Assembly: GCA_021800275.1 (NCBI GenBank)
Contig: JAJYZB010000001.1
Coordinates: 392,624-456,623 of the forward strand
Direction: 5' to 3'
Length of the DNA stretch: 64,000 nt
Origin: a bacterium
Lineage (GTDB): Bacteria > Vulcanimicrobiota > JABDET01
A model generated the notes under the pieces. That model saw only the letters and a program-made list of their open reading frames with translations. It searched no databases and was not told the DNA's origin. Shown here in pieces: positions 6,571-55,316 of this stretch (position 1 is its first letter; each line of letters begins with the position of its first letter). The position numbers and the translations under genes were made by a program.

Positions 6571-7530
6571 ATGTTAACAAAATCAAATTCTCTAGATCAA
6601 CTAATTCAACAAACTCTAGAAGGACGAGAAGTTTCGTTATCCCGATTGATCACACTGATTGAAAACGAGTCTTCAGAAGCTTCTCTCATACTCAAAACTC
6701 TTTACCCTCATCGAAAAAAATCATACCGAATCGGGATTACGGGTCCTCCAGGAGGTGGAAAATCAACTCTGGTTGACCGTCTAGCTCTTCTGGCAAGAGA
6801 ACAAGGCTTCAAAGTTGGAATCGTTTGTGTTGATCCAACAAGCCCTTTTACTGGAGGGGCAATACTGGGAGACCGAATTCGAATGAGCAAATCTTCTGGC
6901 GACCCTGATATTTTTATCAGAAGCATGGCAGCAAGAGGATCCCTGGGAGGAATGGCTCGAACAACAGAACAAGTAACAGAAATTCTGGAAGCATCTGGAA
7001 AAGATTTAATCTTAATTGAAACCGTTGGAGTTGGACAATCTGAACTGGATATTTACCAGACAGTTGATACCGTTGTAGTGGTCCTAGTCCCTGAATCAGG
7101 AACAGGGGTTCAAGCCATGAAAGCAGGGCTTATGGAAATCGCCCATATTTTTGTCGTCAATAAAGCAGACAGACCAGGCGCCAGTCGAATAAAACAAGAA
7201 ATTGAAGATGTTCTTGGGCTTGCTCCACAGCAGGAGTGGTACCCCCCCGTTTTTTTAGCTCAAGCTTATCGGGGAATCGGGGCAAAAGAAATCTTTGAAG
7301 GGTGTCTGAATCACAAAACGTTTCTTGAAAACAGGAAAAAATCAGATTACACCTTGAAAAAAATCGAAAAAAAATTGCGGGATTTGATTCTTGAAAAAAT
7401 GGAAAAAGAGGTTTTTCAAAGGGATAGAGCTAAAGAAAATCTTATTTGTTATTCAAAAAAAATATTGGAAGGAGTTTTAGACCCCTATACAGCAGCAGAA
7501 GAATGGGTCGAACAGATTAGAAAACAGTGA
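6571..7530 (+). CDS. meaB: Methylmalonyl-CoA-mutase-associated G-protein chaperone MeaB/ArgK family
   Basis: GITGPPGGGKSTL is the P-loop. VNKAD is the G4 motif. Overall MeaB/ArgK layout. Confidence 0.85.
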   Translation: MLTKSNSLDQLIQQTLEGREVSLSRLITLIENESSEASLILKTLYPHRKKSYRIGITGPPGGGKSTLVDRLALLAREQGFKVGIVCVDPTSPFTGGAILGDRIRMSKSSGDPDIFIRSMAARGSLGGMARTTEQVTEILEASGKDLILIETVGVGQSELDIYQTVDTVVVVLVPESGTGVQAMKAGLMEIAHIFVVNKADRPGASRIKQEIEDVLGLAPQQEWYPPVFLAQAYRGIGAKEIFEGCLNHKTFLENRKKSDYTLKKIEKKLRDLILEKMEKEVFQRDRAKENLICYSKKILEGVLDPYTAAEEWVEQIRKQ

Positions 7531-7934
7531 AAAGAAAACTAAAAATTTTAGTTTCTAAAATTGGTTTAGATGGTCATGATCGAGGAGCAAAAGTTGTTGC
7601 TCGCTCTTTGAGAGACGCTGGATTTGAAGTCATTTATCTTGGAATTCATCAAACTCCTGAAATGGTTGTCAATGCCGCTGTCCAAGAAGATGTGGATGTG
7701 ATCGGACTATCTCATCTTTCAGGGGCTCATAAAACACTTTTTCCCCGAACTCTTCAATTATTAAAAGAAAAAGGAAGAGAAGACATCCTTGTCATGGGAG
7801 GAGGAATTATTCCCGAGGAAGACAAAAGCGAACTGCTCAAGCTGGGGATTGTTAAGTTGTTTGGTCCAGGAACATTAACCCAGGATATTATCTCTTATTT
7901 AAAAGAATTGGAAAAAGAAAAATATCTGACATGA
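7527..7934 (+). CDS. Stand-alone cobalamin (B12)-binding domain protein (methylmalonyl-CoA mutase small/C-terminal domain-like)
   Basis: ILVSKIGLDGHDRGAKVVA is the DxHxxG B12-binding motif. The start overlaps the meaB stop, and the stop overlaps the next start (ATGA), so the genes are coupled. Confidence 0.8.
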   Translation: MKRKLKILVSKIGLDGHDRGAKVVARSLRDAGFEVIYLGIHQTPEMVVNAAVQEDVDVIGLSHLSGAHKTLFPRTLQLLKEKGREDILVMGGGIIPEEDKSELLKLGIVKLFGPGTLTQDIISYLKELEKEKYLT

Positions 7935-9112
7935 AACCCTTGGAGGGACTTCGAGTTTTAGACTTCACCCGAATTCTGGCAGGTCCCTTTTCAACCATGC
8001 TTCTGGCTGATATGGGAGCAGAGGTTATTAAGATTGAAGAACCCCAAAAAGGAGATGAAACCAGAGCCTATGGCCCTCCTTTTTTCGAAGGATTCAGCAC
8101 CTATTTTTTAAGTGTCAATCGAGGGAAAAAATCTCTGACCCTTAATTTAAAACACCCGAAAGCTAGAGGTATGCTCATCACTCTTTTGCATTCCAGCGAT
8201 ATTTTAGTAGAAAACTTTCGCCCCGGAACAATGTCAAAACTCAATTTAGATTATCCATCTGTCTCTTCCTTAAATCCTAAACTTATATACTGCAGCATTT
8301 CAGGATATGGGCAAACTGGACCAGAGGCTTTAAAACCAGGATATGATCTGGTGATTCAAGGAATCTCGGGTTTAATGGATCTCACGGGAAATCCTGATGG
8401 TCCCCCTCTGAAAGTAGGAACTTCAATCGCGGATTTAGTCGCCGGATTGACAGCTGTCCAGAGCATTTTGCTGGCATTGATACAAAGAGAAAAAACAGGA
8501 AAAGGAACTTTTTTGGACATCGCTCTTTTAGATTCTTTAGCTGCTATGCTGACATATCAAGCAGGTCTCCATTTCATTGGGATAGAACCTAAGCGAATGG
8601 GAAACCAGCATCCATCCATCTGTCCCTATGAAACTTTTCAAGCAAAAGATGGATATTTCAATATTGCTGCTGCCAATGATAAACTCTGGAAAACATTCTG
8701 TGAAGGAATCGGACATTCGGAATTAATCGCCGATCCCCGTTTTAAAACAAACCCTGACCGGGTTCAAAATCGTCCTGATTTAGTTAAAATATTAAACAAA
8801 ATTTTCAAAGAAAGAGCTGCCTCTGAATGGGTTGACCTTCTGCAGCAGCAGGGAATTCCAGCAGGCTTAATTTTCTCTGTTTCAGAGGTTTTAGAACATC
8901 CACATCTAAAAGAAAGAGAAATGATCATGAATCTTCCGATAAATGGGAAAGGCTTTCGATTTTTAGCCAATCCAATTTCTGTGATTCGCGAAGAAAAAGA
9001 CAAATCCACTCCTCCTCCTTCGCTCGGAGAACACACCGAAAAAGTTCTGCGTGAAATCCTCAAACTTCTTCCATCTGATATAGCTACACTGAAAAGAGAA
9101 GGAGTTGTTTAA
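7931..9112 (+). CDS. Family III CoA-transferase (CaiB/BaiF/formyl-CoA transferase family)
   Basis: LEGLRVLDFTRILAGPFSTMLLADMGAEVIKIE is the diagnostic N-terminus. The catalytic Asp region, IADLVAG, is present. Confidence 0.85.
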   Translation: MKPLEGLRVLDFTRILAGPFSTMLLADMGAEVIKIEEPQKGDETRAYGPPFFEGFSTYFLSVNRGKKSLTLNLKHPKARGMLITLLHSSDILVENFRPGTMSKLNLDYPSVSSLNPKLIYCSISGYGQTGPEALKPGYDLVIQGISGLMDLTGNPDGPPLKVGTSIADLVAGLTAVQSILLALIQREKTGKGTFLDIALLDSLAAMLTYQAGLHFIGIEPKRMGNQHPSICPYETFQAKDGYFNIAAANDKLWKTFCEGIGHSELIADPRFKTNPDRVQNRPDLVKILNKIFKERAASEWVDLLQQQGIPAGLIFSVSEVLEHPHLKEREMIMNLPINGKGFRFLANPISVIREEKDKSTPPPSLGEHTEKVLREILKLLPSDIATLKREGVV

Positions 9113-45885: not shown

Positions 45886-46833
45886 ATGAATATACAAGCA
45901 GCCAGTACTGGAAAAATTACAGGAACAGTTTCCACCGCTAAACAAGCGCCGCAAACGGCAGCAGGATCTCTCCCAGTACCAGATCATATTGTCATTGTTA
46001 TTGAAGAAAATCATGGAGAAGGTCAGATCATAGGGGATAAACCTGTACAACCTGATTTATACCACCAAATTGTAGGAAATGCCCAAGATGCTCCTTATAT
46101 CAACTCTCTGGCTAAAGAAGGAGCACTTTTCACAGATTCCCACGGTGTAATGCACCCCTCTACCCCGAATTATCTTGCCTTATTTTCTGGATCAACCCAT
46201 GGAGCCACAACGGATAACTGCCCCCCTCCAGGAGCCCCTTATTCCACTCCAAATCTCGCAGAACAATTAATGAACCATGGATACACATTTGAAGGTTATG
46301 GAGAATCCATGCCGCAGCCTGGATTTACAGGCTGCCAAAGTGGTCTTTATGTGAGAAAACACTGTCCCTGGGTGAACTGGCCATCTCTTTCTAAAGAAAG
46401 CCAGCCTTTTACTGCGTTCCCAACAGATTTCAGCAAACTCCCAACAGTCTCATTTGTAATCCCTAATCTCAATGATGATATGCACAATGGAACAGTGCAG
46501 CAGGGAGATACCTGGCTGAAAGATAATATCAGCCAATACGCCCAATGGGCAAAAACCCACAATTCTCTTCTCATTGTTACTTTTGACGAAGATGATTTTA
46601 CACCGGCTAATCATATCCCTACCATTTTCGTGGGGCAAATGGTCAAACCAGGACAGTACAGCGAAACCATCAACCACTACAACGTCCTGCGGACTATTGA
46701 AGCAATGTACGGACTCTCAGCTCTTGGGAATGCAGCTCAAGCCCAGCCGATCACAGATGTTTGGCAGTCCACTGTCAATGCAGCCCAGGCTTCCAATCCC
46801 GAAAAAACTTCTGCAAATTCGGCGGCAGCCTGA
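45886..46833 (+). CDS. Phosphoesterase-family protein (acid phosphatase/phospholipase-C-like, PF04185-like)
   Basis: HIVIVIEENHGEGQ resembles the ENHSFD metal site. Probably secreted. Confidence 0.55.
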   Translation: MNIQAASTGKITGTVSTAKQAPQTAAGSLPVPDHIVIVIEENHGEGQIIGDKPVQPDLYHQIVGNAQDAPYINSLAKEGALFTDSHGVMHPSTPNYLALFSGSTHGATTDNCPPPGAPYSTPNLAEQLMNHGYTFEGYGESMPQPGFTGCQSGLYVRKHCPWVNWPSLSKESQPFTAFPTDFSKLPTVSFVIPNLNDDMHNGTVQQGDTWLKDNISQYAQWAKTHNSLLIVTFDEDDFTPANHIPTIFVGQMVKPGQYSETINHYNVLRTIEAMYGLSALGNAAQAQPITDVWQSTVNAAQASNPEKTSANSAAA

Positions 46834-46897: not shown

Positions 46898-48148
46898 GTG
46901 AGAGGAAATTCTTTCCTCATGCCCGCAGATAAAATATTAGCGCAAGAAAAATCGCACCATGAGCCAGAGGTTCACAAGCTTAGGTTTGTTAAAATCCAGG
47001 GTTACCGCCCTTTTAAAGATTTTACTGCAGAGCTCGATTTACTCGAAGTATTCGTTGGAGCAAATGGAACAGGAAAATCCAGCTTTTTCGAATTCCTTAA
47101 ATTTATCAGAGATGGTGTAAAAACCGAAGAAATCCCTGCCGAAATTATTGCAGGTTCAATCGGGCAACAAATTTTTCATAAACCAGGTCCGGATAAATTC
47201 TTCTGGAACCTGGAGATGAATATGGAGGGCGAGAAAACGGCTATACAGTACCAGGGAGAACTAATAGGACCAGTCGGTCAAACCCGAGTGATTTATGAGA
47301 CTGTTCAAACAGCAAAACCACTTGGACAACAATACAGCAAACCTCTCATATTGATGGATGTGAGAAATGGCAGTGGTAAAATTTTTGATCCCTTATTGAA
47401 AAAATTTAAATCCCAAGAAATCATATTGAAACGCACTAATCAACTTGCCCTCAGCCTTATGACCAACCCTGCGTTAAAAACCTTGTATGATTTAAGGGAA
47501 TTCATCCTTGAATGGAAGTTTTACAACTCGTTTAATATTGATAATTATAAAATTCGCCAGGCTGTGCCGACAGAGCAAGAACCAATCCTGAGAGAAGACG
47601 CGGGAAACCTGAGTTCAGTGCTGCATTACCTTATGACTGAACACCCTCCTATTTTTGATGAACTACAGCAGTATCTGCGTCAAGTTATACCAGGTTTCAA
47701 AAAACTCATGGTGAAAGCTCGAGGCGCTCCAGGACACGTCATTGCTTTCTGGCAGGAAGAAGGCGGAGAGGACCTCAGTCTCGCCGATTTATCAAACGGA
47801 ACTCTTCACCTTATATGCTGGACAGCCCTTTGTGTGAATCCTAAAATCCCGACGCTTATCTGTATAGATGAACCTGATCAAGGAGTGCATCCTAGAACAC
47901 TTCCTTTTCTCGCAGGTTTATTCAAAAAAGCAAGTGAGCGGACTCAAATATTTCTTGCCACTCATGCCTCCTATTTTTTGATCCAATTCGATCTGGAGAA
48001 TTTAGCAGTGTTAGTAAAAGAAAATGGTGAAACGAAGTTCGTTAAGCCTGCTAACTCTGCAATACTCAAAGAAAATCTAAAAGAATTTGGCTCTGAAGAG
48101 ATAGAGATCATGCACAAAAATGATGAACTGGAAAATTTCTCAGAATGA
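46898..48148 (+). CDS. ABC/SMC-like ATPase (AAA_21/AAA_15 type) of a candidate two-gene defence cassette
   Basis: VFVGANGTGKSS is Walker A. LSNGTLHLICW is an ABC-signature/Q-loop-like segment. TLICIDEPDQGVHP is Walker B with the D-loop. FLATHASYF is the H-loop. An alternative start is 46919, where the RBS GAGAGGA sits in a GAGGAAA..TTTCCTC palindrome. Confidence 0.75.
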   Translation: MRGNSFLMPADKILAQEKSHHEPEVHKLRFVKIQGYRPFKDFTAELDLLEVFVGANGTGKSSFFEFLKFIRDGVKTEEIPAEIIAGSIGQQIFHKPGPDKFFWNLEMNMEGEKTAIQYQGELIGPVGQTRVIYETVQTAKPLGQQYSKPLILMDVRNGSGKIFDPLLKKFKSQEIILKRTNQLALSLMTNPALKTLYDLREFILEWKFYNSFNIDNYKIRQAVPTEQEPILREDAGNLSSVLHYLMTEHPPIFDELQQYLRQVIPGFKKLMVKARGAPGHVIAFWQEEGGEDLSLADLSNGTLHLICWTALCVNPKIPTLICIDEPDQGVHPRTLPFLAGLFKKASERTQIFLATHASYFLIQFDLENLAVLVKENGETKFVKPANSAILKENLKEFGSEEIEIMHKNDELENFSE

Positions 48149-48798
48149 TAGTAGTTCATATTTATGTTGAAGGCGCTTCAGATAAATATGCTATGGAGAA
48201 CCTCCTCAAACCGTTAATCGAGCGCAAACAAAAAGAAAACGTTTACATTCGTTTTCACGACTCTCCTGAAGGAGATAAAAAGAAATCAGTATTACTCAAG
48301 ATTCCACACAAAGCCGTAAACATTCTCAGAAACAACAGCTCAGCAATTGTCATCGCTCTACCTGATTTATATCCCAAAAATAAAGGATTTAATCATGAAA
48401 CCGTAACAGAACTAGAACAAGGCATTTGCAAAGTTTTTTCCAATAAACTGAAGACTGCAGGGATTCATTATGATGAGAAAATCAGAGAGCGATTCAAGGT
48501 ATTCTGTTTCAAATACGAGTTAGAATCTCTTATTCTGGCATCCAAAGAATCACTCGAAAAAAGATTAGGAGTAACCTCTCTTAAAATTGAGTGGCGCCTG
48601 CCTGTTGAGGACCAAAACCATGAGAACCCACCCAAAAAAATCGTAGAGAAACTATTTAAACTTCAAAATATGCGTTATACAGAAACAATCGATGCCCCAA
48701 TCATTCTGGGGAGCAGTCATTATCAAGAATTAACAAAGTCCTGTAGGCAATGCTTTAAACCTTTTATTGATTATCTTGAGCAGATCAGTCAAGCTTAA
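48145..48798 (+). CDS. DUF4276-like small protein with a TOPRIM-like N-terminus (predicted nuclease partner of the upstream ATPase)
   Basis: MIVVHIYVEGASDKYAMENLL matches the hhhVEGxSD opening of OLD/RloB/AriB-type TOPRIM domains. Acidic residues follow: IALPDLYP and others. ATGA start/stop overlap with the ATPase. The family call is from memory and was not searched. Confidence 0.55.
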   Translation: MIVVHIYVEGASDKYAMENLLKPLIERKQKENVYIRFHDSPEGDKKKSVLLKIPHKAVNILRNNSSAIVIALPDLYPKNKGFNHETVTELEQGICKVFSNKLKTAGIHYDEKIRERFKVFCFKYELESLILASKESLEKRLGVTSLKIEWRLPVEDQNHENPPKKIVEKLFKLQNMRYTETIDAPIILGSSHYQELTKSCRQCFKPFIDYLEQISQA

Positions 48799-49610
48799 AT
48801 AGAAAAACTGAAAACAGCGCAGCCCGTCCCGGTTGAAGGCGTGGAATAATATTCCAGTTTGCCTTTGGCTTTATCCCCTAAAACACCCCATAGGAAATAA
48901 TGGGAAGCCAATCCTCCTTCAGGTTGAGCTGCTTTAAAAAGATCACGATTCATTTCATCCATCTGGTTGAATGAACCACTGGTAAAAATGCGAATCACTT
49001 CTTCATCAAATTTCTTCGCATCTGACAGAGCATTCTTCGACTGTTCAGGCAGCCCATCAGTCTGGTTAGATAAAGACGGATTCAGATTCAATAAATCGGG
49101 ACGGTAACTTAAAGAACCAGTCACAAGAATTCCCATGGGCTCACTCCATTTTTGTCCCCCTTTTTTTACCGCGATTCCCCACTTTCTGTGAGCTTCAGGA
49201 GACATCTGAGACAAAGAAATAGGAAGAACTTTGCGATGTTCTGGAGCAAGCAGTTTAAAAAGCTCCCATTCTGAAACTGTAATCCCTCCAACTTCAGTTC
49301 CTTCTATCCATAATCCAGCAGCTTCCCCTGATTTCACCAGCATCTCCGCTAATTCAGGCTGTCCTTCAAAAAAAGGAGGAGAAGGATCTTTTTGGGGAGT
49401 GAAATCGTTCCCCACCAAAAAAACAGAACGAGCATTTTGAACTAAAAACTTTCCTTTCGGCTTCCATTTTATGCTCACTGTGATTAAACGGTGAACCTCT
49501 TCGAACGAGCTCGAGAGTTTTGCCAGAACTTGAGAAAGGTCATGATAAACTCCATTCCTTCTGACCAACTCAGGATTAAAACCCAGATAAATCGCTTTTA
49601 CAATAGGCAT
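48795..49610 (-). CDS. DODA-type (LigB / YgiD-like) extradiol dioxygenase family protein, apparently lacking the canonical His ligands
   Basis: AIYLGFNP, ITVSIKWK and HYFLWGVLG align to the YgiD motifs ALFLGHGSP, VVVSAHWD and HYLPLLYVLG. His is replaced by F and K. Confidence 0.55.
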   Translation of the reverse strand: MPIVKAIYLGFNPELVRRNGVYHDLSQVLAKLSSSFEEVHRLITVSIKWKPKGKFLVQNARSVFLVGNDFTPQKDPSPPFFEGQPELAEMLVKSGEAAGLWIEGTEVGGITVSEWELFKLLAPEHRKVLPISLSQMSPEAHRKWGIAVKKGGQKWSEPMGILVTGSLSYRPDLLNLNPSLSNQTDGLPEQSKNALSDAKKFDEEVIRIFTSGSFNQMDEMNRDLFKAAQPEGGLASHYFLWGVLGDKAKGKLEYYSTPSTGTGCAVFSFSI

Positions 49611-49985: not shown

Positions 49986-52001
49986 TTACAATAAATGAAC
50001 TGGATCCACATCCACAATTAAGCGAATTTTCCTCTCCTTTTGGTCTGCATGCCAGGAGTACGCTTTTTCCCCAATCGGAAGCAAATCTTCAAAACGGTGA
50101 GATTTAACTAAAAAATGCCAGCGAAACCGTTTTTTTATTTTTGAAATCGGAGCAGGTGAAGGACCTAAAAAAACAAAATCACCAGCAAATTCATCCGATA
50201 AGAAATTTTTTAATGCTTCACTCTGTTTCCCGACTTTATCTTCTTGCTCCCCTTCTAAAAGAAAGTGTGCGATGTGGACAAAAGGCGGATATCCGGATCT
50301 TCTGCGAGTTTCCAATTCTTCCCGATAAAAAGAAAGATAATCTTGTTTACGTACAGCTTCAATAACCGGATGTTCTGGATCAAATGTCTGAAGAATGACT
50401 TTTCCTTTTGCCTCCCCTCTCCCTGCTCTTCCAGCCACTTGTGTCAATAGCTGAAACGTTTTTTCCCCTGCGCGAAAATCAGGAAAATGAAACATCTGAT
50501 CCGCATAAAGAATCCCAACAAGGCTGACATCAGGAAAATTGAATCCTTTTGCCACCAACTGCGTTCCAATTAAAATTTGAACTTCTTTTTTCGAAAAAGA
50601 GGAGATGATTCTTTGAATTTCCCCTTTTTTAGAAGCTGTGTCCCGATCTAACCTTAACACTTTGACACGAGGAAAATATTTTTTAATTTCTTCTTCCAGC
50701 CTTTGAGTTCCAAATCCACGGTAAGTTAAGCTGTAACTCTCACACTTCGGACAGGAATGAGGAGATCTAATCCGATAACTGCAGTAGTGACAGGTTAATA
50801 GGGCATTCTCAATATGGAAAGTCAGACTGATGCTGCAGTATGGACACTGGAAAGTGTATCCGCAGTCCATGCACAAAACAAACGGAGAAAAACCGCGGCG
50901 ATTTAAAAAAAGAATCACTTGATTCCCTGCTGCCAAAGTTTGTTCCATCTCGTCTAACAATCTCAAGGTAAAGGGAAACCTCTGCTTAATATTTTTCTCC
51001 CGCATGTCAACGACCTGAATTTCGGGAAGAGGCCTATCCATGTATCGAGAAGAAAGAGTTAAAAGAGAAAAATTCTCCGTCTGGGTTAAATAATATGCCT
51101 CAAGAGAAGGGGTAGCGCTCCCAAGCAGCAGAACAGCATTCTCCTGTTCTGCTAACTTCTGAGCAATTTTAAACGTTTGATAACGTGGATTCTGATCCTG
51201 TTTATACGAGCTGTCATGTTCTTCATCCATTACAATCAACCCTAGATTTTTTACGGGTGCGAACAATGCCATTCGTGGCCCGATCACGATTTTTTTTTCA
51301 CCTAAAAAAATTAAATTTTTTTCAATACGCAGCTCTTTCTGCGTCATTTTCGAGTGAAGAACAGCTACCAGGCTTCCAAACTTTTCTTGAAACTTTTGAG
51401 AAACTTGAAAAGAAAGAGGAATCTCAGGAACTAAAACAACTGCCTGCCTGCCAGAAGAAACGACTTTTTCGACACACCTTAAATAAACCTCCGTTTTTCC
51501 ACTGCCTGTTACTCCATGAAGAAGAAATCCTTGAAAAGAAACTTTCCCAAGGGCATCACAAACTTGATTAACGGCTGCAGCCTGTTCAGAAGTCAAGCAA
51601 ACAGCATTGTCAGAAAGAGCGTGTTTGCTGTCTGACAGAGATTCTACTTGAGGATGATTTTCTTGCTCTGACAAGACCTTGCCATCCAGAGGGAAAACAA
51701 AACCTTTTAAAGCGCTCCAACGGGAGGAAAGATAGTGTTTTGCAATCCACTCAGACAGGTTCATCACCTCTTTTGAAAGAGAAACCCATCCTGAATTTTT
51801 TTTTAAAATAGACTTTGTTTGAATTCCCGGATCCGGACAGAAACCGAGTACATACCCTGCTGCCTCCCCATTTCGAAAAGGAACGATGACAGGATCTCCA
51901 ATCGAAATTTTATTCTCTAATTCCAAAGGAACTTGATAAGTAAAAATTAAATTGGTTTCCATATTTCCTAAGGGAAGCAGAATTTCAGCAAATAAAGGCA
52001 T
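49986..52001 (-). CDS. priA: Primosomal protein N' (replication restart helicase PriA)
   Basis: GVTGSGKTEVYL is Walker A. DEEHD is the DEAH box. The Cys-rich zinc region is CMDCGYTFQCPYCS...CHYCS...CPKC. Confidence 0.9.
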   Translation of the reverse strand: MPLFAEILLPLGNMETNLIFTYQVPLELENKISIGDPVIVPFRNGEAAGYVLGFCPDPGIQTKSILKKNSGWVSLSKEVMNLSEWIAKHYLSSRWSALKGFVFPLDGKVLSEQENHPQVESLSDSKHALSDNAVCLTSEQAAAVNQVCDALGKVSFQGFLLHGVTGSGKTEVYLRCVEKVVSSGRQAVVLVPEIPLSFQVSQKFQEKFGSLVAVLHSKMTQKELRIEKNLIFLGEKKIVIGPRMALFAPVKNLGLIVMDEEHDSSYKQDQNPRYQTFKIAQKLAEQENAVLLLGSATPSLEAYYLTQTENFSLLTLSSRYMDRPLPEIQVVDMREKNIKQRFPFTLRLLDEMEQTLAAGNQVILFLNRRGFSPFVLCMDCGYTFQCPYCSISLTFHIENALLTCHYCSYRIRSPHSCPKCESYSLTYRGFGTQRLEEEIKKYFPRVKVLRLDRDTASKKGEIQRIISSFSKKEVQILIGTQLVAKGFNFPDVSLVGILYADQMFHFPDFRAGEKTFQLLTQVAGRAGRGEAKGKVILQTFDPEHPVIEAVRKQDYLSFYREELETRRRSGYPPFVHIAHFLLEGEQEDKVGKQSEALKNFLSDEFAGDFVFLGPSPAPISKIKKRFRWHFLVKSHRFEDLLPIGEKAYSWHADQKERKIRLIVDVDPVHLL

Positions 52002-55000
52002 TTAAAGTTGAAGCCGCTTTATTTCTTGATCAATTAAATTCAGGGTTTCAGGATCAGACTGACTCTGCTTCAACCTCTCAAGCTGTTCCAGGGCATCTTG
52101 TCTCTTTCCCAGCATTTCGTAAGCTTTTGCTAAATCCCAACTATAATGCCAATTTCCAGGAGTCAAATCCCTGGCTGCTTTATAATGACCTGCAGCCTCA
52201 TTATACTCTTTTCTGTGCATCAACACATTTGCCAATTTCCAGTGATAAACGTCTTTTTTCTGTTTCGCTAATTTTAAAGCTGTCTCATAAGACGAAAGCG
52301 CAGATTCCAATTCTCCTTTAGTAAAAAAAAGATCCCCTAAAAAAGCATGGTATTTTGCCTGCTGCGGCGCCGAATGAATGGCATTGAGAATGGCTTGAAT
52401 GGCTCCTCCTTGATCTCCAGATTCTAATAAAATTTCAGCAAAATCCGCAAATATTTCCGTTTCCTCTCGTTTTGCCAGGCGAGCAGCGCGTTCCATGTGT
52501 CGTTTTGCTTCTGCTTTCAATCCCTGTTCCGCCTTTATTTTACCTAAAAGATGAAAGATATCAGCATAAGAAGGATAATACTGAGATGCTTTTTCAAGAG
52601 CAGTCTCAGCCTCTTTTAAAAGAGCTTTTTCCATATAAGTTTTACCTAAATAATAATAATTTTTTCCAACAATCTGTTTTGCTCTCCCACTGATAGGCTG
52701 TGAAGCTGAGTCTATCGCTTTCTGAAAAGATAAAATCGCTTCATCTAATTTGCCCAGTTTCAAGAAAGCTTTGCCAAGCAAATTATGGACAAGCTGGGTT
52801 CTAGGCTCTAACTCAAGAGATTTCTGGTACTGATAAATAGCTAAATTTAGCAGGTTTTGTTCGGCATAAACTCTTCCCAAAAGTCCCTGTGCAAGCGCAT
52901 CTCCAGGTTTAAGCTCAACCACTTTTTGATATTCTTTTCTAGCCAGATCTAGCTTGCCTCTTGTTTCATACATAACCCCGAGAGCTTTGCGATAATCAGT
53001 GTTATTCGGATCATATGAAACAGCTCGCAGCATTTCTTCAATTGCGTTGTCTAAATTTTCCTGCATATAATAAACTAATCCGAGAGATTCATGAATCTCA
53101 GGATTATATGGATCATACTGCAGAGCAGTTTTATATTCCTGAACCGCAAGTCCTGATTCTTCTCTCCAAAAATGAATCTGCGCCAAACTGGCATGGGCTT
53201 CAGCATCAGAAGGATTCAAAGAAACAGCCCGCTTAAACTGTAAAAAAGCTTGATCAAGGCTGTTCTGTTTCAAATAGAGCTTTCCCAAATCTTTCAAAAC
53301 AACAGGATCATTGGGGTTTAAGCTTGCCGCTTTTACGAGATGATCAAACGCCAAATCTTCCTGATTTTCCTGCAGATACACTTCGGCTAATTTAGAATGA
53401 ATGCCTGGATTTTCAGGATTTACTTTCACCGCTTTCTTTAAATGGACAATAGCTTCATCCCTTTTATCCTGTTTAAAATTAAGATCTCCAAGGCGGCTGA
53501 GAGCAGACGTGTTTTCAGGATCTATTTCGAACGCTTTTTCATACAGTTTGATGGCTTGAGAAAAACGATTTGTTCTTTCATAAATTTCTCCTAAAAGGGT
53601 CAGAGCTTCAGAATCGTTTGGATTCAAATCTAAAACCTTTTTAAGAACCATATTCGCTTCTTCCAGACGAGAAAGGCGAATCAATACTCGAGCCAGACTG
53701 CGAAGCATGCTGACATTTTTAGGATCTAATTCAAGAGCTTGCTCCAGTGATTGAGAGGCTGATTCAAAATCTCCCTCTTTCTCTTGAAGTTTCTCCAACT
53801 TCTGCCAGACGCTGATCCGGGCGATCAAAGGAGCAGCTTTTTTATAAGCATCCAGCGCATCTAAATCATGATTCAACTTTTGTTCAATATCACCCAGGCT
53901 CTCCCAGGCATGGCCATTGTCAGGTTCAATTTTTAAAGCTTTAAGCAGCTCAGACTTCGCTTCAGTGTAGTGCTGTAAATTCAAAAAACAGAGCCCGGAA
54001 TAGTAATGCACCTCAGCAGCTGCTGAATGGTTCTTTAAAAATTTTTGAAAAACATGAAGAGCCTGCTCATAAGCTCCCTGTTGATAAAGAGCAATTCCCT
54101 GATTGATGTCATCAGAAAAATCAGAGATAAATGCAGAAGCAAGGAGAGAGCCGCATTCTAAACAATACTTCTGAAAAGAATCCCCTAATGTTCCACACCT
54201 GGGACAGGGAACTTGAGCTATTTCTTTTCCCTTTTCAGAAACAACTTCATCCCCTGACTCCACTGATGATGTTGTTTGAGAAGACAATAGATCCTGCTGC
54301 TTTTGCAAACGATCAACAACAGGATTAAACTTTATAAAAGAATCTCGAGAAAATCCCTCCTGTTTATCCTTATCCTTTGAGAGCAGATTTTTTAGTTCCT
54401 CCAAAACTGCTGTTTTATCTACGAACCCAGGAGGAGGGGCTTTAGTTTCAGAAGTTGAAGATTCTTGAACAGCAGGTCCTAAAAATCCTGCGTTTGAACG
54501 AAGTGACGATGAGCCTTTTTCTAAATCCTGCAACAGATCCCCAACAGTTTGATATCTATCTGCAGGGTTTTTAGCCAGTGTTTTCAAAACAACCTGATCC
54601 AAAACCTCGGGCACAAAAGAATTTAATTTCGAAGGAAGAGGAGGAAGGGTGGAAAGATGATGAGAGAGCATCTCTGAAGGGGTTCTAGCATCAAATGGAA
54701 GGGAACCTGTCAAAAGTTCAAAAAGAACAATACCGAGAGAATAAATATCTGAACGCAAATCTGCTTGTTTCCCTTCAGCCTGTTCAGGAGAGAGATAAGC
54801 AATGGTTCCCATAACAGCTCCTGGCTGAGTAACAGAGTGTCTGTCCTCCATGACCGCAATTCCAAAATCCATCACTTTTACTGTTCCATCGCGCAGGACC
54901 ATGATGTTTTCAGGTTTGACGTCCCGATGAACGACTCTTTTTTGATGCGCATAATGCAGAGCCTCTGCTGCCTGTTTGAACAAATTCAAAGATCCTTCCA

Positions 55001-55316
55001 AAGAAATCTCCTGTCTAGATTCAAGCCACTCTCTCAGAGTTTCCCCTTCCAAATACTCCATGACCATATAATAAATCTCTCCATCTTCACCAATATCATA
55101 AATAGGGAGAATATGAGGATGCTCTAACTTTGCCGCCACTTTAGCTTCTCTTAAAAATCTCCGAAGAGCTTCTTTGTTTTTAAGAAGCTTGGGAGGAAGA
55201 ATTTTAATGGCGACCATTCTCTCAAGGCTCGGATCTTCAGCCTTATAGACGATCCCCATGCCACCTCTGCCTACTTCTTCCAGAATCTTATAACGGCCAA
55301 TAAAAACAGGATTCAT
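52002..55316 (-). CDS. Hanks-type Ser/Thr protein kinase fused to a zinc ribbon and about 20 TPR repeats
   Basis: GRGGMGIVYKA...VAIK...HRDVKPEN...DFG...APE gives the kinase subdomains. CPRCGTLGDSFQKYCLECG is a zinc ribbon. Long TPR array. Confidence 0.85.
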   Translation of the reverse strand: MNPVFIGRYKILEEVGRGGMGIVYKAEDPSLERMVAIKILPPKLLKNKEALRRFLREAKVAAKLEHPHILPIYDIGEDGEIYYMVMEYLEGETLREWLESRQEISLEGSLNLFKQAAEALHYAHQKRVVHRDVKPENIMVLRDGTVKVMDFGIAVMEDRHSVTQPGAVMGTIAYLSPEQAEGKQADLRSDIYSLGIVLFELLTGSLPFDARTPSEMLSHHLSTLPPLPSKLNSFVPEVLDQVVLKTLAKNPADRYQTVGDLLQDLEKGSSSLRSNAGFLGPAVQESSTSETKAPPPGFVDKTAVLEELKNLLSKDKDKQEGFSRDSFIKFNPVVDRLQKQQDLLSSQTTSSVESGDEVVSEKGKEIAQVPCPRCGTLGDSFQKYCLECGSLLASAFISDFSDDINQGIALYQQGAYEQALHVFQKFLKNHSAAAEVHYYSGLCFLNLQHYTEAKSELLKALKIEPDNGHAWESLGDIEQKLNHDLDALDAYKKAAPLIARISVWQKLEKLQEKEGDFESASQSLEQALELDPKNVSMLRSLARVLIRLSRLEEANMVLKKVLDLNPNDSEALTLLGEIYERTNRFSQAIKLYEKAFEIDPENTSALSRLGDLNFKQDKRDEAIVHLKKAVKVNPENPGIHSKLAEVYLQENQEDLAFDHLVKAASLNPNDPVVLKDLGKLYLKQNSLDQAFLQFKRAVSLNPSDAEAHASLAQIHFWREESGLAVQEYKTALQYDPYNPEIHESLGLVYYMQENLDNAIEEMLRAVSYDPNNTDYRKALGVMYETRGKLDLARKEYQKVVELKPGDALAQGLLGRVYAEQNLLNLAIYQYQKSLELEPRTQLVHNLLGKAFLKLGKLDEAILSFQKAIDSASQPISGRAKQIVGKNYYYLGKTYMEKALLKEAETALEKASQYYPSYADIFHLLGKIKAEQGLKAEAKRHMERAARLAKREETEIFADFAEILLESGDQGGAIQAILNAIHSAPQQAKYHAFLGDLFFTKGELESALSSYETALKLAKQKKDVYHWKLANVLMHRKEYNEAAGHYKAARDLTPGNWHYSWDLAKAYEMLGKRQDALEQLERLKQSQSDPETLNLIDQEIKRLQL

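Follow-up and report, generated by a model that had tools for sequence, protein, structure and literature searches.

We studied a two-gene cassette in a 64,000-nucleotide stretch of DNA (hereafter the window) from a bacterium of the phylum Vulcanimicrobiota. In the cassette, a gene for an ABC-type ATPase is followed, on the same strand, by a gene for a small protein of the DUF4276 family resembling the TOPRIM nucleases of the OLD type. Our analysis confirmed that both are real genes and that they form an insertion of about 2 kb with housekeeping genes on both sides. The 5' flank is a phosphoesterase gene (PF04185), and the 3' flank is a minus-strand gene with a weak match to the LigB family; the tetranucleotide TTAA is common to its stop codon and that of the DUF4276 gene. 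A preliminary description of the locus had proposed two translationally coupled open reading frames (ORFs) with an ATGA overlap at 48145, lying between a phosphoesterase and a dioxygenase-like gene with a convergent overlap at the 3' end. All of this was borne out, with one correction: the public gene calls, in four independent assemblies with identical proteins, use the ATG at 46919 as the start of the first ORF, which gives a protein of 409 amino acid residues (aa).

Homologues of the ATPase begin to align at about residue 19 of the 409-aa form, and residues 1-14 of its predicted model are of low confidence; the N-terminal extension thus appears to be lineage-specific. The exact start, either the GTG at 46898 or the ATG at 46919, is uncertain. 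Scans for promoters and terminators gave signals at background level only. The GC content of the cassette (37-43%, against 40-46% in the flanks) is not diagnostic.

The ATPase matched the Pfam families AAA_21 (E 5.9e-24) and AAA_15 (E 4.9e-15), and the small protein matched DUF4276 (PF14103; E 1.4e-16; 61.7 bits against a cut-off of 30.2; positions 1-192 of the 192 in the profile), these being the families that the preliminary description had named for such a search. Judged from an alignment of 51 homologues, the ATPase has an intact ABC nucleotide-binding site with every motif present (Table 1). Comparison with the sequences of solved structures in the Protein Data Bank (PDB) gave only a marginal match to Uup. 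At the N-terminus of the small protein, IVVHIYVEGASDKY, the residues are invariant or nearly so among 57 homologues. This segment and the ATPase motifs had been quoted in the preliminary description, and all were found where it had placed them. On the evidence of the alignments, the catalytic motifs of both proteins are under purifying selection.

We used two alignments for the DUF4276 protein, one of the 57 closer homologues and another of 34 diverse members, down to 25% identity, collected by searching 1.84 billion cluster representatives exhaustively with a profile. The AlphaFold2 model built from the 57-homologue alignment had a mean pLDDT of 93.9 and a pTM of 0.89. Its predicted fold, a three-layer alpha/beta TOPRIM fold with a subsequent helical domain as in the OLD type, is nearest to the TOPRIM nuclease regions of the OLD family. 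The best structural matches were the OLD, AriB, and GajA nucleases; RecR, primase, and RNase M5 were absent among the matches listed. Four residues (E9, D74, E127, and E155) are invariant in the family alignments, and D13, K46, H84, and R116 are nearly invariant. E9 corresponds to the invariant TOPRIM glutamate that closes strand 1, and both E9 and D13, the latter within helix 1, keep their conservation in the two alignments. In the OLD protein of Burkholderia pseudomallei, E400, E404, D455, and E508 bind two catalytic metals (PMC6755086). E9, D13, D74, and E127 are the probable topological counterparts of these four residues in the model, and the spacing between E9 and D13 is the same as that between E400 and E404.

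Table 1. Features of the cassette in the window, and examples of related pairs in urease gene clusters (coordinates of the latter are those of the respective loci)
Feature	Position	Strand	Remarks
ABC-type ATPase gene, HEC-01A-like	46919..48148	+	409 aa from ATG 46919; alternative GTG 46898 gives 416 aa
DUF4276 gene, HEC-01B-like	48145..48798	+	217 aa; OLD-type TOPRIM-like and helical domain; predicted nuclease effector
ATGA start/stop overlap, translational coupling	48145..48148	+	4 nt common to both ORFs
Indel relative to contig L166	46818..48790	+	1,973 bp; blastn/tblastn comparison with the closest related contig
Walker A / P-loop GANGTGKSS (K53)	47057..47083	+	G47, N49, G52, K53, S55 invariant in 51 homologues
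ABC signature-like LSNGT	47789..47803	+	S292, G294 invariant in 51 homologues
Walker B and D-loop LICIDEPDQG (D317, E318)	47855..47884	+	C315, D317, E318, P319, D320, Q321, G322 invariant in 51 homologues
H-loop ATHAS (H349)	47957..47971	+	T348, H349, S351 invariant in 51 homologues
E9-G-A-S-D13	48169..48183	+	TOPRIM glutamate ending strand 1 (residues 2-8 in the model) and an acidic residue four positions on
P73-D74-L75-Y76-P77	48361..48375	+	At the place of the TOPRIM DxD, after strand 3 (67-71); second Asp is Tyr
E127	48523..48525	+	Invariant in both alignments; starts the first helix (127-132) after strand 4 (117-119); candidate second-metal ligand
E155	48607..48609	+	Invariant acidic residue (34 diverse members), conserved PVEDQN loop
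Example urease loci	L020 91-5557; L021 7360-8005; L045 7584-14816; L050 7597-13244		About 30 further among L019-L079

Both proteins were compared with the profile models of PADLOC-DB, and the assignment given here is one of profile matches, made without PADLOC's own thresholds and system rules. The best model for the ATPase was HEC-01A PDLC04175 (E 6.5e-51; residues 26-401 against positions 4-351 of 363), and eight of its nine top matches were HEC-01A models, the fifth (PDLC04144) being labelled HEC-01B. The best model for the small protein was HEC-01B PDLC04188 (E 3.7e-12; 44.5 bits; residues 1-214 against positions 12-226 of 230). The HEC-01 arrangement of neighbouring genes in the same orientation is also present, here with a 4-nt overlap. 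We assign the pair to this family with high confidence; as the HEC-01B match is modest, the pair seems to represent a divergent subfamily. The pairing is already catalogued in PADLOC as HEC-01, a candidate anti-phage system, and the cassette is not a new kind of system. This answers the question, raised in the preliminary description, of whether the pairing had been named.

HEC-01 was defined by Payne et al. from copies located inside Hma (helicase-methylase-ATPase) systems, as a pair of an ABC ATPase and a protein, HEC-01B, that is structurally TOPRIM-like and has a conserved OLD-like metal site (bioRxiv 10.1101/2024.01.29.577857). The window pair has the same two-gene architecture and the same protein families, with near-full-length model matches. 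Whereas the defined copies lie inside Hma systems, the window copy and its clade stand alone between housekeeping genes: neither a helicase nor a methylase was found from about 9 kb upstream to about 10 kb downstream of the cassette, or among 150 neighbouring proteins of 41 related loci. Embedding in Hma is the context in which HEC-01 was discovered and not a requirement of its models. In a later survey of cold-seep genomes, E. coli B carrying one HEC-01 representative was reported to be protected from one or more of the phages T7, T5, and T4 (bioRxiv 10.1101/2024.09.26.614923), and HEC-01 is still treated as a candidate in other surveys (PMC12853721).

The combination of an AAA_15/21 ATPase and a TOPRIM protein is a recurring architecture of defence systems (PMC11464382). 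The same paper, on PARIS, lists MADS3-4 and AbiL as further systems of ABC ATPase and TOPRIM protein and uses DUF4276 as a domain marker, and DUF4276 has been placed in the Toprim superfamily with Mad4 as a homologue (PMC12065111). Both papers list DUF4276/Mad4 as a TOPRIM partner of AAA_15/21 ATPases, a kind of pairing that the preliminary description had mentioned in connection with surveys of defence islands. MADS resembles the window pair in that Mad3 and Mad4 are an AAA_15/21-type ATPase and a DUF4276 protein, cited as a pair of ABC ATPase and TOPRIM protein (PMC11464382, PMC12065111). We rejected it because the NCBIfam equivalog models gave 98.3 bits for MAD3 (cut-off, 420) and 13.4 bits for MAD4 (cut-off, 160), and because a methyltransferase or other mad genes were not found in the roughly 9 kb before and 10 kb after the cassette. 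In PARIS, which belongs to class 4 of the OLD family, the effector AriB is a DUF4435 protein, whereas the effector in the window belongs to DUF4276. The small protein had no AriB or DUF4435 match (PADLOC and Pfam, E <= 0.1), and the AriA models (3.6e-24 and 8.5e-15) matched the ATPase less well than HEC-01A did. Moreover, PARIS is often carried by phages or their satellites, whereas the window family was not found on viral contigs, phages, or plasmids. The term 'PARIS-like' used in the preliminary description is thus apt for the architecture and not for the effector.

Class 2 OLD proteins and GajA of Gabija differ from the window pair in that their ATPase and TOPRIM domains are fused, whereas two separate polypeptides are encoded in the window; their DxD motif is replaced by D-L-Y in the window protein, which has no sequence match to TOPRIM_OLD. 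OLD of classes 1 and 2 and Gabija were rejected on the basis of the separate ORFs, the lack of a UvrD-like GajB or helicase gene beside the pair, and the low score of the GajA model (1.9e-10). AbiL and Menshen also combine an AAA_21-type ATPase with an effector of the TOPRIM superfamily (PMC12065111, PMC11464382), and the ATPase matched the AbiLi (1.3e-20) and NsnB (2.6e-11) models; both systems were rejected as the small protein matched neither the AbiLii/RloB nor the NsnC models. In Menshen, in addition, DUF4276 is the C-terminal domain of the larger NsnC, whereas that in the window is a free-standing protein, and the DxD motif reported for the Menshen domains (PMC12065111) is missing from the window family. 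D-L-Y is thus a clade-specific variation.

To examine the distribution of the pair, we scanned one genome for each of 185,579 species and obtained 132 loci of the window-pair subfamily, 80 of which were retrieved. In 79 of the 80, the ATPase gene lies directly upstream of the DUF4276 gene, on the same strand and abutting it; the exception is cut at the edge of the locus. The two genes are obligately co-inherited. The relatives are 42-68% (ATPase) and 43-59% (DUF4276) identical to the window proteins, and their hosts belong to Chloroflexota, Cyanobacteria, Acidobacteriota, KSB1, Nitrospinota, Poribacteria, Omnitrophota, Bacteroidota, Armatimonadota, Desulfobacterota, Firmicutes, and Pseudomonadota. 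The scattering of homologues over about twelve phyla at such identities indicates horizontal spread. The family is small, with 367 representatives at E <= 1e-3 among the 1.84 billion cluster representatives. In a few loci (L040 8803-9989, L007 8904-10001, L067 4211-4837, and L081 2991-3311), the ATPase shows only partial alignment or is divided between two ORFs; these may be decaying copies (pseudogenes) or assembly frameshifts.

A site without the cassette was found by means of its rarer neighbour, the LigB-like gene. A scan of metagenome contigs for sister genomes with the primosomal protein PriA, encoded next to the LigB-like gene, had given only relatives of at most 45% identity. The LigB-like protein has eight cluster representatives among 5.8 billion proteins, one identical to the query and seven non-identical relatives. 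The closest of these (58% identity) lies on contig L166, which also encodes a phosphoesterase and an HD-GYP regulator 86% and 85% identical to those of the window, in the same order and orientation. On L166, the LigB-like gene converges directly on the phosphoesterase gene, the two overlapping by 4 nt, and tblastn did not detect the ATPase or the DUF4276 protein in the 11.3 kb fetched. By blastn, positions 45951-46817 of the window correspond to 7131-7997 of the reverse complement of L166 (84%), and positions 48791-49349 to 7997-8504. Since nucleotide homology stops at 46817 and resumes at 48791, at the same join in L166, the two genomes differ by a 1,973-bp indel. It comprises the last 5 codons of the phosphoesterase gene, a 101-nt leader, and both cassette genes except the last 8 nt.

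The cassette is therefore an accessory insertion, an indel relative to a related genome, as the preliminary description had supposed from its position between unrelated genes. Two genomes alone cannot polarise the event, and gain by the window lineage is the simpler reading because of the distribution across phyla. Target-site duplications, terminal direct or inverted repeats beyond chance, integrase or recombinase genes, and tRNA-like targets were not found at the cassette. The LigB-like gene (window 48795-49610, minus strand; L166 2543-3331) has diverged more than the phosphoesterase and regulator genes (58% against 85-86% identity), and past it synteny ends, with PriA in the window and the cytochrome oxidase genes COX1 and COX2 in L166. 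Given this divergence and the break in synteny, the cassette lies at a rearrangement-prone boundary. The host lineage is poorly sampled: among 241 million metagenome records, the relatives of its PriA (window 49986-52001, minus strand) do not exceed 45% identity, and a collection of 15 billion proteins does not contain the exact PriA sequence, although four assemblies carry the cassette proteins.

In about 20 kb around the cassette, we identified genes for tyrosyl-tRNA synthetase (TyrRS), SpoIID, the HD-GYP response regulator, the phosphoesterase, the LigB-like protein, PriA, a Ser/Thr kinase with tetratricopeptide repeats (TPR), and a cation-efflux protein. As these neighbours are housekeeping genes and their PADLOC matches concern generic domains only, the cassette lies outside any defence island. 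The kinase gene (52002-55316, minus strand; 1,104 aa, many TPR repeats) lies 3 kb from the cassette, beyond PriA. It matched the PADLOC models PD-T4-6 (7e-107) and mad6 (1.8e-79) in the kinase domain only, and is probably a generic Hanks-kinase match and no defence gene. The non-cyanobacterial loci have different neighbours each, with metabolic or housekeeping functions (150 neighbour proteins, 41 loci).

Taking these results together, we favour with moderate confidence the reading that the cassette was acquired horizontally and is a conflict module of the HEC-01 family that stands alone and consists of two genes, for an ABC ATPase and a split OLD-type TOPRIM nuclease. We infer an anti-phage function by analogy with characterised relatives, and the steps of a possible mechanism can be drawn from PARIS, OLD, and Gabija (PMC11464382, PMC12409363, PMC6755086). 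An oligomer of the ATPase would bind the DUF4276 nuclease and keep it inactive while acting as the sensor of a phage-derived trigger. Binding or hydrolysis of ATP, with a conformational change, would then free or activate the nuclease, which would cut nucleic acid in a manner dependent on divalent metal, either DNA as in OLD and GajA or tRNA as in AriB. The cleavage would keep the phage from replicating and would probably sacrifice the infected cell (aborted infection).

Several observations weigh against this reading. With respect to the nuclease, no Pfam TOPRIM model (for example, TOPRIM_OLD PF20469) matched the small protein, DUF4276 being its only match at E <= 0.1, and the DUF4276 profile found nothing meaningful, and no TOPRIM protein, among PDB sequences. 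The TOPRIM assignment therefore rests on the fold. The canonical TOPRIM DxD is replaced by D-L-Y, and catalysis by the DUF4276 protein is therefore not guaranteed: D74 is invariant, and the 34 diverse members have Y, H, C, F, or A, and in no case D, at position 76. The TOPRIM-like character proposed in the preliminary description thus held for the predicted fold and the acidic cluster, and not for the complete DxD or for a match to a TOPRIM model. The proposed equivalences to the metal ligands of OLD are themselves deduced from secondary-structure position and spacing in the model. With respect to function, the HEC-01 representative of the defining authors gave no protection in E. coli against their phage panel (bioRxiv 10.1101/2024.01.29.577857). 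With respect to context, restriction, methylase, helicase, integrase, or defence families did not recur beside the 41 non-cyanobacterial loci, and relatives were not found on 2.9 million viral contigs (IMG/VR), in 50,697 phage records (INPHARED), or on 72,556 plasmids (PLSDB); the DUF4276 protein also had no PHROG match. Finally, 32 to 34 of the 80 loci have the pair within the urease gene cluster, in the same orientation as the urease genes; all of these loci are cyanobacterial, and retention of the pair there over two orders looks more like long-term residence than the fast turnover of defence genes.

Two layouts were found in these clusters, ureD-ureA-[pair]-ureB-ureC in Nostocales (22 loci) and ureD-ureA-ureB-[pair]-ureC in Microcoleus and Tychonema (10 loci). 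The spacers are about 20-160 nt, and the identities of the urease genes were confirmed by Pfam. The cyanobacterial ATPases group together in a single clade of a neighbour-joining tree, and those of the two layouts are 70-75% identical, which suggests one old acquisition followed by rearrangement. Other small modules were observed in the same clusters. In Microcoleus, a HepT/MNT toxin-antitoxin pair lies between ureD and ureA (L021 7360-8005), and several loci have an MmeI-type restriction-modification gene immediately upstream (L021 3444-6158). In two Nostoc genomes, the space between ureB and ureC holds, on the opposite strand, another AAA_21 ATPase gene and a gene for its unannotated partner of 249 aa (L045 11027-12900; L056 11025-12895). 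The urease cluster could be an insertion hotspot for small conflict modules, or it could have a functional link with the pair.

An alternative that we consider unlikely is that the pair is a selfish addiction module similar to toxin-antitoxin systems, in which the DUF4276 protein is a toxin restrained by the ATPase and loss of the module kills the cell with no benefit against phages. Stand-alone insertion amid housekeeping genes with no defence neighbours fits such an element, as do the long stay at one chromosomal site in cyanobacteria, with HepT/MNT pairs in the same spacers, the negative defence test, and the Pfam label of AAA_21 itself ('putative AbiEii toxin, Type IV TA system'). However, the characterised relatives with an ATPase and a TOPRIM protein (OLD, Gabija, and PARIS) all serve in phage defence, one HEC-01 representative did protect, and the genome represented by L166 is evidently viable without the cassette. 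Addiction and defence by abortive infection are, moreover, not mutually exclusive.

We keep a similarly small probability, mainly because of the association with urease clusters, for a less conventional role, in which the pairs of the 'PDLYP' clade would not be classical defence-island systems but a separate type of module that resides in the chromosome, has a modified TOPRIM active site (D-x-Y/H), and serves in something other than, or beyond, phage defence. It could be, for example, a nuclease switch acting on RNA or DNA and linked to stress or nutrients, or an addiction element. Such a role would explain the insertion among housekeeping genes, the absence from phages and plasmids, and the retention in urease clusters in two cyanobacterial orders.

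It is improbable, in our judgement, that the DUF4276 protein is a catalytically dead TOPRIM protein whose sole role is to regulate the ATPase or to serve as its adaptor. In favour of this view, no family member has Asp at position 76, and the second aspartate of the DxD in B. pseudomallei OLD helps to hold metal A through water molecules (PMC6755086). However, single substitutions in that DxD had no discernible effect on cleavage (PMC6755086), so D-L-Y alone is no argument for a dead enzyme. The near-invariant Tyr or His at position 76 suggests functional replacement and not decay, and the strict conservation of the acidic residues down to 25% identity, with D13 nearly invariant, is typical of a retained active site.

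Quite improbable is a housekeeping pair for nucleic-acid processing or repair, comparable to RecF (an ABC ATPase) with RecR (a TOPRIM protein) or to RNase M5, recruited to varied chromosomal contexts. RecR and RNase M5 do contain TOPRIM domains (PMC6755086), the neighbours are housekeeping genes with PriA 1.2 kb away, and the cyanobacterial copies look co-transcribed with the urease genes. Such a function is difficult to reconcile with the rarity of the subfamily among species representatives, scattered over many phyla, with its few cluster representatives among 1.84 billion proteins, with the fact that the host's closest relative lacks the cassette, and with the best fold matches, which were OLD, AriB, and GajA and did not list RecR, primase, or RNase M5. 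That the pair forms only a fragment or a sub-module of some larger named system (mad3-mad4 of MADS, an Hma-embedded system, Menshen, or PARIS proper) is largely refuted and very improbable, since the weak matches to the MAD3, NsnB, AriA, and AbiLi models and the resemblance of the nearby kinase to mad6 and PD-T4-6 are outweighed by MAD3 and MAD4 scores far below their cut-offs, by a small protein that lacks AriB/DUF4435, RloB/AbiLii, and NsnC matches, by the generic Hanks domain to which the kinase match is due, by the lack of methyltransferase, helicase, and other mad genes in the flanks of the cassette (about 9 kb on the upstream and 10 kb on the downstream side), by an indel that holds the two genes only, and by the absence of partner genes from the other 79 loci too.

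The cassette does not open a new category, as the combination of ABC ATPase and TOPRIM protein is already recognised and has been studied mechanistically (OLD, Gabija, PARIS, MADS, and AbiL). What our study adds is the matched empty site, the family-wide D-L-Y, the lack of a defence-island or mobile-element context, and the association with urease genes in cyanobacteria. The D-L-Y motif and the missing defence-island context are cautions for automatic annotation, and they may help to explain the negative E. coli assays of some HEC-01 representatives. The residues K53 and E318 of the ATPase and E9, D74, Y76, E127, and E155 of the DUF4276 protein are singled out for mutation. Should the cassette prove to work in defence, it would provide a well-delimited natural example of HEC-01, a family whose experimental status is ambiguous, together with a matching empty site.

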